DNA of 64,000 nucleotides from Neodothiora populina (taxonomy: Eukaryota). Numbering within the stretch: the stretch's first letter is position 1; every line of letters starts with the position of its first letter. The stretch lies in NCBI RefSeq assembly GCF_041146345.1, contig NW_027191419.1, positions 434,001 through 498,000 of the forward strand, in the 5' to 3' direction. This document shows positions 14,107 to 56,364 of the stretch, piece by piece. Both the position numbers and the translations under genes were made by a program. The notes below the pieces were generated by a model that worked only from the letters and a program-made list of their open reading frames with translations, was not told the origin of the DNA and ran no database searches.

Positions 14107-15888
14107 GTGTGTGTTTTGAAAGTGTCATCATGATGGATGGGCGTCTGAAATTCCGTAAGAGATACCACCTGTCGTTCTTGAGTAGAGTGAGTTTTTATAA
14201 TTAGCCTGAATTCCAATGCGCGTATCTATTTTTCCTCTCGGCGAGATCTCAGTTCGTACAAATCGTGTCCTTCTGATGGTGACGCCGCTGCTCAGCCTGA
14301 ATTAGGGTGTAATTCAGATGAAGGAAGGCAATAACACCAGTCGAGAACAAGACTGTGCATTCTACAAAATAGTGGTCAATATGAGGAGAAGCAGCAGCAC
14401 TGTGCTTTTATTCAATATCGGTTATGTTTCTTTTACCCTTCATTAACCAGGTCAACAGCACCAGCATGTGAGAGTAGTTGCTGCTTGTGATACACAGGCA
14501 GGGTTACCCCTCTCTACTTCGCTCTGCGACGGGAGATGCAATGTCCGGTTGCTTGTCTCTTGCACACAGTTATTCACCGCTCCTGTGCGTCGAAAGCAGA
14601 CGCTTAGGATCAGTATCGGACAAAAAAAATGAACAACATGATACAATATCCAGATATACACCATAGAAACAGGAATGAAGTGCGACACCAGTCACAAAAG
14701 CAAAAGAGCATGAAGGGATATAAACGACAACATAATTGCCATCATCAAACTTGCTGGTTTGGCGCAGTGGCAACGCGTCGCACTTGTACGAGCTTTGTCT
14801 CACGAAATGCGAAGATCACAGGTTCAATTCCTGTAATCAGCAATTATACATCAGATCTTTTTGCGTCAGTCGCACCATGACAGTACATCGTTGCTCCTTT
14901 GGCTGGGATCGGGCTTTCTTCTCATTCGACTCCTGCTCTTTAGTGTACCTATATCCCATGGTATCCTTTTACTTGCTTGTAAAAACCACGTGGACTCTTG
15001 CCGTCTATGACTTGGAGTCATCACCTGTTGGGGAGTTCGTTGTGCCCAAGGTAGGTAGGTGGAATATTTACCCCACTGAACCCCGCAGTCTTTCTTCAGC
15101 GAGATATGACATGACATCCATGTCTCGACCATTGGACTGACTTGCCGTCGTCTCGAAAGCAGATATGTTTTCGTTACCAGTCAATAAGAACAGAAGTGGA
15201 TCTGAACGGAGATGTATACCCTACTCTCACCTGCACATTTATTCATTGTTGGCAGTCTTTATTGATGCTGATCTACAGCAATGGACTCGTAGCTTCGCAG
15301 CGAATTTGGGGCTGTGAAGAGGGATTACTCCAGTAATTGTATGTGGTCATGGTCAAAGTGTATATATAGAGTGATTGTTATAAGCATTGAATGGTAGCAC
15401 AGAGCAGAGTCTTCGAATGTCAAGGAGTGATGAGATGGCTTGGTCTGCGAGCAGCATGTAGTTACCTAGGTTTCTGTAGTTGGTCAAGTGTGCCAGAGAG
15501 TCCATGGATTCGACCAACAGAGAGTCGAATGTGGAGTAGAAATGAATGCAATGTTTTGCTATCAGATGGGAGAAAGGTCTGTTCCCGCTAGGTTGTAACA
15601 GATGTACAATGAATACAGAGTTTTTAAAAATCGGTAAGAAAATGCTGTAATGTACATATAGAAATCGTAGAGTAAGTCGTCAGACAAGCAGACAAACGTA
15701 TGTACTTGAACAGAAACAAAGAAAAGGAAGAACTCGACGAACACAACGCCCCATTTTCCAGTAGTTGCTCCCCTCTTGATATCTCCTTGTCGATATCAGA
15801 TGTCCAATAACGCCAAACGCTGATCGCCAACACGAATAGATGCAAAACGCAAAAACATGACTGTTCTCTCCACATGTTTTTTGGTACA

Positions 15889-27128: not shown

Positions 27129-27215
27129 GGGATTTTGGTCTAGTGGTATGATTCTTGCTTTGGGTATCTCAATCACACATGCAAGAGGTCCTTGGTTCGA
27201 TTCCGAGAAGTCCCC
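27129..27215 (+). tRNA. tRNA-Pro (anticodon TGG) with a 15-nt intron
   Basis: Acceptor stem GGGATTT/AAGTCCC, D-arm TGGTCTAGTGGTATGATT, anticodon arm CTTGC-TTTGGG[intron 27165-27179]T-GCAAG, T-arm CTTGG-TTCGATT-CCGAG, followed by a T-rich Pol III terminator. Confidence 0.95.
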
Positions 27216-53804: not shown

Positions 53805-55197
53805 ATGCCTCCACGATTAGGGTCCCGCGCCTCACATGTCCAGAGATCTTGTGGACAGTGCCTCCACCAGACAGTATGCAGCGGCAAGCGGAAACCATCG
53901 AATGCACGCAACTTCTCTCAGTCCTCGTCACAATCCTTCCAACCGTCGTCTAGACAAGCGACGCGCCTGAGACGAAACATGTTTGCCTGGCTGAATGGAC
54001 CCGGCCGAGCGTTCCGGGAGCCTCAGCCAATGTCGACAAACTACCTCGGAGCCTACGACAAGATGGGAAAGCTTCGCAGGAACCAGGGCCGAGACATGGA
54101 CAGTCCGGCGACGTCTGCCGCAGAAGAGGAGGATGTAAAGGACGAGGGCCTCAGCGATGCGGAGAAGCAGGAGTTGAAGGAGAAGCGGAAAGCCGAGCTG
54201 GAAGATGCAAAGGCTCAGCAGAACATGCATATCAAACCCACCGCGGCTGACTTCAGGCCGTTTCCCCTGAACTTCAGCTTCAAGAGTGAGCCCGTCTTGA
54301 GCGAAGGCCTGCGCGAGGAGTTGTGGAGGCAGGTTGTCGAGCTCAAGCAGAGTGTGGCCACCGTCAGCGCTGTCTTTGGTGTGGACATGCGAAGAGTGGC
54401 TGCTGTGGTGAGACTGACGACGGTTGAGAAGGAGTGGGTCGCAAAGGTACGTTGTTTGTCTATTCTTGTTTCCTTTCTCCATTCGTGTCCAATGATGATG
54501 AACCAAAAAAAATCGATTAGTCTTTAAGACAAATACATGGTTACAAAATTTACGCATGCGAGCCTCTCTGATTGCACATATCCCTTCCTCAACGCTTTCT
54601 CAACTTCTTCTGCGCCATCAACCGCGTGTGACTGACAAGCCATCTACGAAACAGGGTGAGAAACTCGCCACTCCATACGCATCCGCCGTGCTCGCCATGC
54701 TTCCCCAAACAAGATGGTCCCCGACAAAGAAAATCTATCCTCACGAATCCATCAACGACCTGCCAGTCCACCCCTGGACCCGTCAACAAATCTTCTACCC
54801 GACCTCTGAATCCCGACACTTCACACGTGCCGACGCAGCCAAGGTCTTCTCGCCCACCCTTTTACCGGCAGACGACAGAATCCCTCACCCTGAGCTCGTT
54901 CAATTAGAAAGAGAGGCAGCGAATGAAGTCGACCGCGACCAGCGTCTGGCCGCACAGAAAGCCAGAGACGAAAAGGCTCAGAGGGCGCAGCAGGAAAAGG
55001 AGCGCAAGCAAGCCGAATGGGAGGCCAAGAACCGCCGCACCGTCGCCGGCCAACGGTGGGACTTCAACTTCACCAACATCAGTGTCGAGGAGGCCGGCAA
55101 GGACGGTCGCGGCAGACGCGCTGTCGGCTGGAGATACGGAAACCCGCACAACGACAGGAAGCGCGGCGTCATCAAGATACCCACGAGCGTCGAGTGA
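53805..55197 (+). CDS. MRPS35: Mitochondrial small-subunit ribosomal protein mS45 (37S S35, Bot1 family)
   Basis: R/S-rich presequence; RRNMFAWLNGPG, TNYLGAYD, RPFPLN..FKSEPVLSEGLREELW, FGVDMRRVAAVVRL, HESINDLPVH, SESRHFTRADAA, GWRYGNPHNDRKRG. Intron 54447-54654. Confidence 0.88.
54486..54578 (+). ncRNA. Intronic box C/D snoRNA with two guides antisense to LSU rRNA
   Basis: Box C ATGATGA (54492-54498), guide TCGATTAGTCTTT (54513-54525) with D' AAGA, C'-like ATGGTTA, guide TGCGAGCCTCT (54557-54567) with box D CTGA (54568-54571), terminal stem TGTCCAA/TTGCACA. The guides match conserved 25S sequences AAAGACUAAUCGA and GGAGGCUCGCA (recalled). Confidence 0.85.
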
Positions 55198-55552: not shown

Positions 55553-55918
55553 CTACCTCGCAGTCCAATCATCAACAACATGCCCCGGCACATCCCTAAG
55601 CAAGACATGAACATGATCCACGCCCCGAACACTCTGCAACGCGACCCAATTCTTGAACCAAAGCACATTCTCGCGGCCCTTGCCCTCTCCAAAAAGCGCA
55701 TCCAGCGGCGTGGCAAAAGTCCGCTGCACGAAATCCTCGATGACACGTCTCGAGGCCGCCGTCACGTCGCCTGAGCTCGCATCTGTCGCGATCGGCGTCT
55801 TGCTCCACACGCATAGATGCGTGATGTTGTGGTCGAGACCGTAGGGCCAGTCGTTACGCAGGATGCGGAAGTCGTCGGTGTTCGCGAAGGGAGTGGGGTT
55901 TGAGAAGGAGAACTGCGG

Positions 55919-55957
<39 letters not shown>

Positions 55958-56364
55958 TTGTTTTTCTTGCTGCTGCAAAGGCGTCCAGTGCAGGCGCTCC
56001 TTGACCACGAAGTCCGTGATGCCGCCGTACTGCGCTTTGATCTCTGCCGACCACGCCAGGTAGCGGCGCAGGTCGCTTGGTTTGCGCTTCAGTTCCTCCA
56101 AGTGATTGGTGGCTGTTTCTCGTGCGAATCGAAACAGGAATCAGAAAAAAACGCTGGGGAAAGACTGGGAAAAGGGATAGATGGAAAGAAAGAGAGGATA
56201 GGAAGTTCAGTACATATTATTTCACTTAGCTCGCTCCATGTCGTCAGGGCGAATTCCGAGTCGGTCATGGAGAGGATCTTCTTGTCGGTTGATGTGAGGG
56301 GGAAGGCACTGAAGTCATTGTAGTTCTTGCTGTTGTCCTGGTCGGACTTGGCGATCCCATTCAT
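55553..56364 (-). CDS. DUF3605 / GIG1-like (N-acetylglucosamine-induced) protein
   Basis: TWSELSEII|STNHLEELKRKPSDLRRYLAW..ILRNDWPYGLDHNITHLCVWSK..WFKNWVALQSVRGVDHVHVL. Intron 56113-56213. Confidence 0.85.
55922..55960 (-). repeat. Coding (CAA)2(CAG)11 microsatellite encoding Q13
   Basis: (ctg)11(ttg)2 on the + strand, inside the GIG1-like CDS. Confidence 0.95.

Follow-up and report, generated by a model that had tools for sequence, protein, structure and literature searches.

A CD39/snR83-family box C/D snoRNA in the mS45 intron of Neodothiora populina with a putative second guide for 25S rRNA G860

Which RNA does the short intron of the mitoribosomal protein gene mS45 (Bot1/MRPS35) of N. 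populina carry, and what is the role of its second antisense element? The window analysed, i.e., the whole stretch of 64,000 nucleotides, holds this gene on its plus strand, and the first-pass annotation placed a dual-guide box C/D snoRNA in its intron. The following features were identified at the locus.

53805..54446, plus strand: mS45/Bot1/MRPS35 coding exon 1, an open reading frame with a putative start codon (Pfam PF12298 at residues 151-213, E 3e-21)
54447..54654, plus strand: snoRNA-hosting spliceosomal intron of 208 nt, GTACGT...AAACAG
54486..54578, plus strand: box C/D snoRNA of the CD39/snR83 family, its core being the same as in Neurospora crassa (Nc) CD39 and Schizosaccharomyces pombe snR83
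54492..54498, plus strand: box C, ATGATGA, by sequence (repeat register 54495-54501)
54513..54525, plus strand: D' antisense element for the 25S A917-equivalent, 13/13 Watson-Crick pairs with the organism's own 25S
54526..54529, plus strand: box D', AAGA, identical to D' of Nc CD39
54537..54543, plus strand: C'-like box, ATGGTTA, GTGGTTA in S. pombe (ATGGTTA in 82 of the 99 filtered loci described below, the filter itself having required a C'-like motif)
54553..54567, plus strand: D antisense element for the 25S G860-equivalent, with a core at 54557-54567, lengthened by 3 bp beyond a single bulged A
54568..54571, plus strand: box D, CTGA, by sequence
54632..54636, plus strand: branch-point motif, CTGAC, by sequence
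54655..55197, plus strand: mS45/Bot1/MRPS35 coding exon 2 (PF12298, E 2e-20; mS45 of PDB 6yw5, E 6e-42)

The PF12298 (Bot1p) domain spans both exons in register, with profile positions 3-65 in exon 1 and 68-169 in exon 2, and the next-closest matches to exon 2, after the 100% identical protein of the species itself, were Dothideales proteins. A minus-strand gene converging on the mS45 host contains a polyglutamine tract (a CTG/TTG triplet run at window positions 55915-55975). The only Rfam matches within the window were two intron-containing tRNA genes, at 14753-14842 and 27129-27215.

The C, D', C'-like and D boxes and the terminal stem described earlier for the 208-nt intron were all found, the stem (54486-54492/54572-54578) being imperfect, with six of seven pairs formed as judged by eye. 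In 33 loci of the family, the mean longest terminal helix was 4.06 bp versus 3.14 bp when the partners were shuffled (200 shuffles, none above 3.55). The C and D boxes lie near the ends of the RNA, the internal D' and C' boxes are present though degenerate, and each antisense element ends at D or D' with a helix of at least 10 bp (11 and 13 bp, respectively) and a Watson-Crick pair at position +5. Box C starts about 45 nt downstream of the 5' splice site, the median of the family being 47, and the mature RNA is probably about 85-90 nt long, with its ends placed by inference. Folding revealed no stable structure beyond the snoRNA termini (z 0.83); box C/D snoRNAs usually have no stable fold there.

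Both guide matches fall in cytosolic 25S rRNA. The D' guide, TCGATTAGTCTTT, pairs 13/13 in all four rDNA copies of the assembly, as had been proposed by the first-pass annotation. The proposed D-side pairing, TGCGAGCCTCT, with one G-U pair, was recovered as 11 bp in both copies of contig C18, and in the two of contig C11 two of the pairs are G-U; one G-U pair of this duplex is located at D+1, and the target position is Watson-Crick paired. By the D+5 rule the guides point to A914 (D' guide) and G857 (D guide) of the organism's own 25S rRNA. A914 corresponds to Saccharomyces cerevisiae position 917 through the S. pombe table, and G857 to S. cerevisiae G860, since it lies 57 nt upstream of A917 in a stretch that is gap-free against the Rfam model, so that the sites and the spacing named by the first-pass annotation hold. 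The G860-equivalent directly follows the internal loop of a hairpin that we take to be helix 34.

The four 25S copies fall into two types with a mutual identity of 88%, located on C18 (618 kb; L003, L004 and L132) and on C11 (17 kb; L001, L002 and L133). The C18 rDNA is probably native and that of C11 a contaminant from another fungus, based on contig size and on the C11 spacer, which is probably Penicillium-like. The choice between them is immaterial for the pairing, because the D' guide forms 13/13 pairs and the D guide 11 bp with both types. Among 20,000 random 20-mers from the window compared with 5,712 nt of rRNA, a 13-bp Watson-Crick match occurred four times and a match of at least 11 bp with at most one G-U pair 283 times (1.4%). 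The D-side match on its own is thus only moderately significant, and its conservation carries the claim. Including the bulge, the D duplex comprises 14 bp with -27.0 kcal/mol, and the D' duplex reaches -17.2 kcal/mol.

The identity of the RNA as an orthologue of Nc CD39 and S. pombe snR83, together with its A917 target, is practically certain. Compared by eye with Nc CD39, its guide and D' box agree in 18 of 19 nt, and its C' box with the bases after it in all 12, so that the homology extends beyond the guide. Nc CD39 was cloned as a cDNA of an intronic RNA with a D' guide for 26S Am897 and with S. pombe snR83 as its homologue (Liu 2009, PMC2780460). Neurospora numbering is 20 lower in this region (Am856 = Am876, Gm888 = Gm908), and Nc Am897 is therefore S. 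cerevisiae A917. In S. pombe, the corresponding Am949 was confirmed by primer extension and reported to be absent in human, plant and budding yeast (Diao 2014, PMC4138321), and mass spectrometry showed 98.6% methylation of this position (Taoka 2015, PMC4605285). CD39 was also reported in all Candida species examined and as absent from S. cerevisiae (Donovan 2016, PMC5033589), and it is catalogued as family CD_39 (Canzler 2018, PMC5824354). These published members and the core match place the RNA in a known family. Because the core is shared with Nc CD39 and S. pombe snR83, a new snoRNA family was ruled out, and the idea that A917 is new and lineage-specific was rejected on account of the Neurospora target and the measured S. 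pombe Am949; A917 is an old, widespread fungal methylation site missing from S. cerevisiae. The lineage-specific methylations suggested earlier consequently do not include A917; the G860 part, which is still a prediction, does show a lineage-restricted distribution. Nor was the expectation borne out that the RNA may already be in Rfam, as no Rfam 15 model reached its gathering score at the locus (best snoR124 with 16.7 bits and snR77 with 15.3 bits, E above 6) and the family is found in the literature instead. Four further genome matches to the 12-nt D' guide were dropped, as they had no boxes.

The known relatives differ from the N. populina RNA mainly on the D side. Nc CD39 shares with it the intronic location, the D' guide, the AAGA D' box and the C' box with the following bases, but has a length of 73 nt and a U-rich D side, for which 26S Am375 is the predicted target; in the RNA described here, the D side is longer and contains the G860 guide. 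No host gene for Nc CD39 is named in the main text of Liu 2009 (PMC2780460). S. pombe snR83, a box C/D RNA unrelated to the H/ACA RNA snR83 of S. cerevisiae, is likewise intronic, with the same D' guide and D' and C' boxes, but its D side has no G860-type element. The Candida RNA belongs to the CD39 family (PMC5033589). The snR60/Nc CD48 family resembles the present RNA in that one RNA serves two sites of 25S domain II (Am817 and Gm908), and its own D guide overlaps the rRNA stretch targeted here by the D' guide; it is nevertheless a separate family with other targets and another sequence.

Relatives were collected from metagenome contigs by a scan for box C, the 12-nt D' guide and box D, with the D side left free. 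At least 117 loci were obtained, and 99 of those among the matches listed passed a D'/C' motif filter; of the 18 dropped, 17 appeared to be chance matches and one, L062, was a true member with variant boxes. The counts below refer to the 99 filtered loci among the matches listed. The base preceding D' was T in 51, G in 39 and C in 9 of these loci, a variability expected for D'+1. Variants of the C' box shifted towards the consensus, e.g., GTGGTGA, and its departure from the consensus is retained as far as S. pombe. The bases ATGGTT of the C'-like box (54537-54542) are complementary to 25S 925-930, directly adjoining the D' target, over only 6 bp; speculatively, the box may at the same time provide additional base pairing.

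An mS45 gene hosted the snoRNA in 91 of the 99 listed loci. In these 91, both splice junctions aligned with those of the window in 50, one in 35 and none in six, and in two distant mS45 loci (about 30-40% protein identity) the exon ended at the same Pfam position. The remaining eight comprised two in an intron of a Nop15-like gene (L054 and L076), one in a non-coding intron adjoining an unrelated gene (L036) and five in hosts other than mS45. The mS45 intron is therefore an ancient but replaceable host, and one that is not required, as the snoRNA is also found in the Nop15-like and non-coding introns. In L054 and L076, CD39 has been relocated to a Nop15/NIFK-like ribosome biogenesis gene; the snoRNA sequence of L067 and L111 resembles theirs.

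The core of the second guide, GCGAGCCTCT, stands immediately before box D in 37 of the 99 filtered loci (34 non-identical) among the matches listed and is missing from the other 62. The T preceding it, which pairs with A866, played no part in the selection and yet is present in 34/34 non-identical loci, and the intron 3' of box D shows only 29-62% majority identity. A GC beyond a bulge of 1-2 nt, able to extend the helix, follows in 36 of the 37 loci, and in the 37th the helix continues without a bulge.

The element was distributed unevenly among lineages labelled by the best protein match of at least 55% identity, a rough assignment from references without Eurotiomycetes and with only two Sordariomycetes. 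Among the matches listed, it was present in 15/16 Dothideomycetidae-like, 12/14 Leotiomycete-like and 2/2 Sordariomycete-like loci, in 1/7 Lecanoromycete-like loci, and in none of 14 Pleosporales-like and two other Dothideomycete-like loci. A FastTree phylogeny built from exon 2 of 42 loci, of 31 named references and of the window, in which deep branches are poorly supported, agrees with the taxon labels. This pattern suggests that the G860 element may have originated early and been lost several times.

The N. populina genome itself contains exactly two copies of the element. The second CD39 copy (G000:C5:776961-777182, minus strand; L124 and L134) is located in an intron of 222 nt, some 120 nt downstream of the RRG7 stop codon. 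Its core is identical to that of the mS45 copy at 73 of 81 positions, and both guides are intact, while the flanks have diverged. Its host is either a 3' UTR intron of RRG7 or a separate non-coding gene.

Other D sides were scored against the rRNA of N. populina rather than that of their own organisms. Eleven Pleosporales-like loci share a conserved D element of their own, with up to 13 bp around A783 of the N. populina 25S rRNA, and three further loci (L098, L103 and L112) have a 14-bp perfect match around its 25S G990. In two loci from distant fungi (L007 and L115), the D side is like the Nc CD4 guide for 18S C49 (Cm49), over 13 bp in L007, which suggests that two snoRNA families were fused into one RNA. 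Another eleven loci share a D-side motif ending in ATTACAACTC(T/G), for which the rRNA of this genome contains no match of at least 9 bp and only a partial one in 25S near position 141. Four of the 99 filtered loci among the matches listed resemble decayed G860 elements, and 31 have no common D-side sequence. L070 shows a G-to-A change opposite position 861. The two larger groups consist of the following loci.

A783-type D side: L025, L033, L034, L043, L061, L072, L090, L092, L102, L109, L116
ATTACAACTC(T/G)-type D side: L012, L016, L023, L024, L027, L064, L065, L069, L073, L083, L094

To judge from sequence, the D side of CD39 is a slot filled with different guides in different lineages. Predominantly single-guide families with a fixed D' target and a lineage-limited D target, such as snR87 and snR53, have been described (Canzler 2018, PMC5824354), and the D-side pattern of CD39 fits this type. 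CD_39 is not among such examples in the main text of that paper, whose Supplemental Table S14 gives the complete list of these families (PMC5824354).

The D guide is predicted, with good though not compelling confidence, to produce Gm860. This reading is supported by the exact D+5 register, the Watson-Crick pair at the target, the recurrence of the element in 37 of the 99 listed loci and its intact state in both paralogues. It could instead be that the D element pairs without methylating and serves as an accessory or chaperone anchor, which holds helices 34/35 open during A917 methylation. The D duplex is the stronger of the two, the pairing would reach from the internal loop of helix 34 over its 3' strand into the beginning of the helix that follows, and the helix extension is possible in 36 of the 37 loci. 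Cases in which additional pairing enhances methylation are on record; however, purely accessory elements do not abut the D box, with one exception (van Nues 2011, PMC3116282). The element described here directly abuts a canonical D box in the correct register, which, given the rarity of such an arrangement among accessory elements (PMC3116282), favours methylation by the D guide. Moreover, other lineages have exchanged the D element for guides to unrelated sites or lost it, while the D' guide was kept, and the extension is weak evidence because GC[T/A] is also found in 32 of the 62 loci without the element. The anchoring function is accordingly regarded as rather unlikely; a folding chaperone bridging the two sites, as first proposed, gained no special support either, nearby double targets being ordinary (snR60, Am817 and Gm908). 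That the D match is a relic or a chance event in a single-guide CD39 RNA is the least probable explanation and hardly credible: the 1.4% chance level of one such match and the degenerate forms in four loci speak for it, but it is largely refuted by the fact that the element is kept unchanged in two fungal classes and in two diverged paralogues.

The mitoribosomal host could also be regulatory, so that the snoRNA level follows mitochondrial biogenesis and tunes the methylation of cytosolic ribosomes. Such an arrangement would agree with the mS45 host in 91 of 99 listed loci, some of them from distant fungi in which the intron occupies the same profile position, and with the second own copy just past the stop of RRG7, another respiration-related gene. 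On the other hand, the snoRNA has moved to a Nop15-like intron (L054 and L076) and to a non-coding intron (L036), the near-complete methylation of Am949 in S. pombe (98.6%; PMC4605285) leaves little room for tuning, and long-kept snoRNA introns are common in housekeeping genes such as RPL7 and NOG2 (PMC8476143). A regulatory role of the host is therefore considered improbable, and the coupling of snoRNA output to a mitochondrial ribosome gene that had been inferred is unsupported, the host intron being widely conserved but replaceable.

Returning to guided methylation of G860, the site was sought in published rRNA maps. Neither G860 nor A917 is present in the S. cerevisiae methylation table (PMC5199042), as the first-pass annotation had indicated. 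The S. pombe methylation file searched contains no entry for position 892, the G860-equivalent (PMC4605285), G840 is not listed among the N. crassa predictions (PMC2780460), and a G860-type site is not listed in the Aspergillus table (PMC2377427). For Chaetomium thermophilum, 53 LSU 2'-O-methylations have been reported (PMC12723226). Searches of the literature yielded no report of a G860 guide, of an mS45 host or of methylation maps for these fungal classes, nor of Gm860 among the papers listed, the last being a weak test. The RNA is a member of a known family whose putative G860 second guide is, provisionally, probably unreported.

In the proposed mechanism, the spliced mS45 intron would be debranched and trimmed to release the snoRNA, which, as expected for its class, would bind Snu13, Nop56, Nop58 and Nop1 and pair with domain II of pre-25S rRNA. 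The D' guide would direct 2'-O-methylation of the A917-equivalent, as shown for the S. pombe orthologue, and the D guide is predicted to act likewise on the G860-equivalent, which lies at the base of the internal loop of helix 34. The G860 guide would have been kept in Dothideomycetidae, Leotiomycetes and scattered others, with the mS45 host mainly providing steady transcription. A broader reading, in which CD39 makes an unrecorded Gm860 in Dothideomycetidae and Leotiomycetes and its D side has also been re-aimed repeatedly, with at least four lineage-specific guides within the same intron, one of them matching Nc CD4 (18S C49), is put forward tentatively and at somewhat less than even confidence.

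The finding is chiefly of value for annotation, as Rfam does not detect this otherwise ordinary RNA of a published family. A working second guide would put one more site on fungal rRNA maps, without altering the mode of action of box C/D RNAs. Two large classes of filamentous fungi would then have a ribosome methylation that is missing in yeast maps, and one guide would turn over while the other guide and the host intron stay fixed, so that target switching could be tested. If the D side has indeed been re-aimed repeatedly, CD39 would provide a natural series for studying the gain and loss of rRNA methylation sites.
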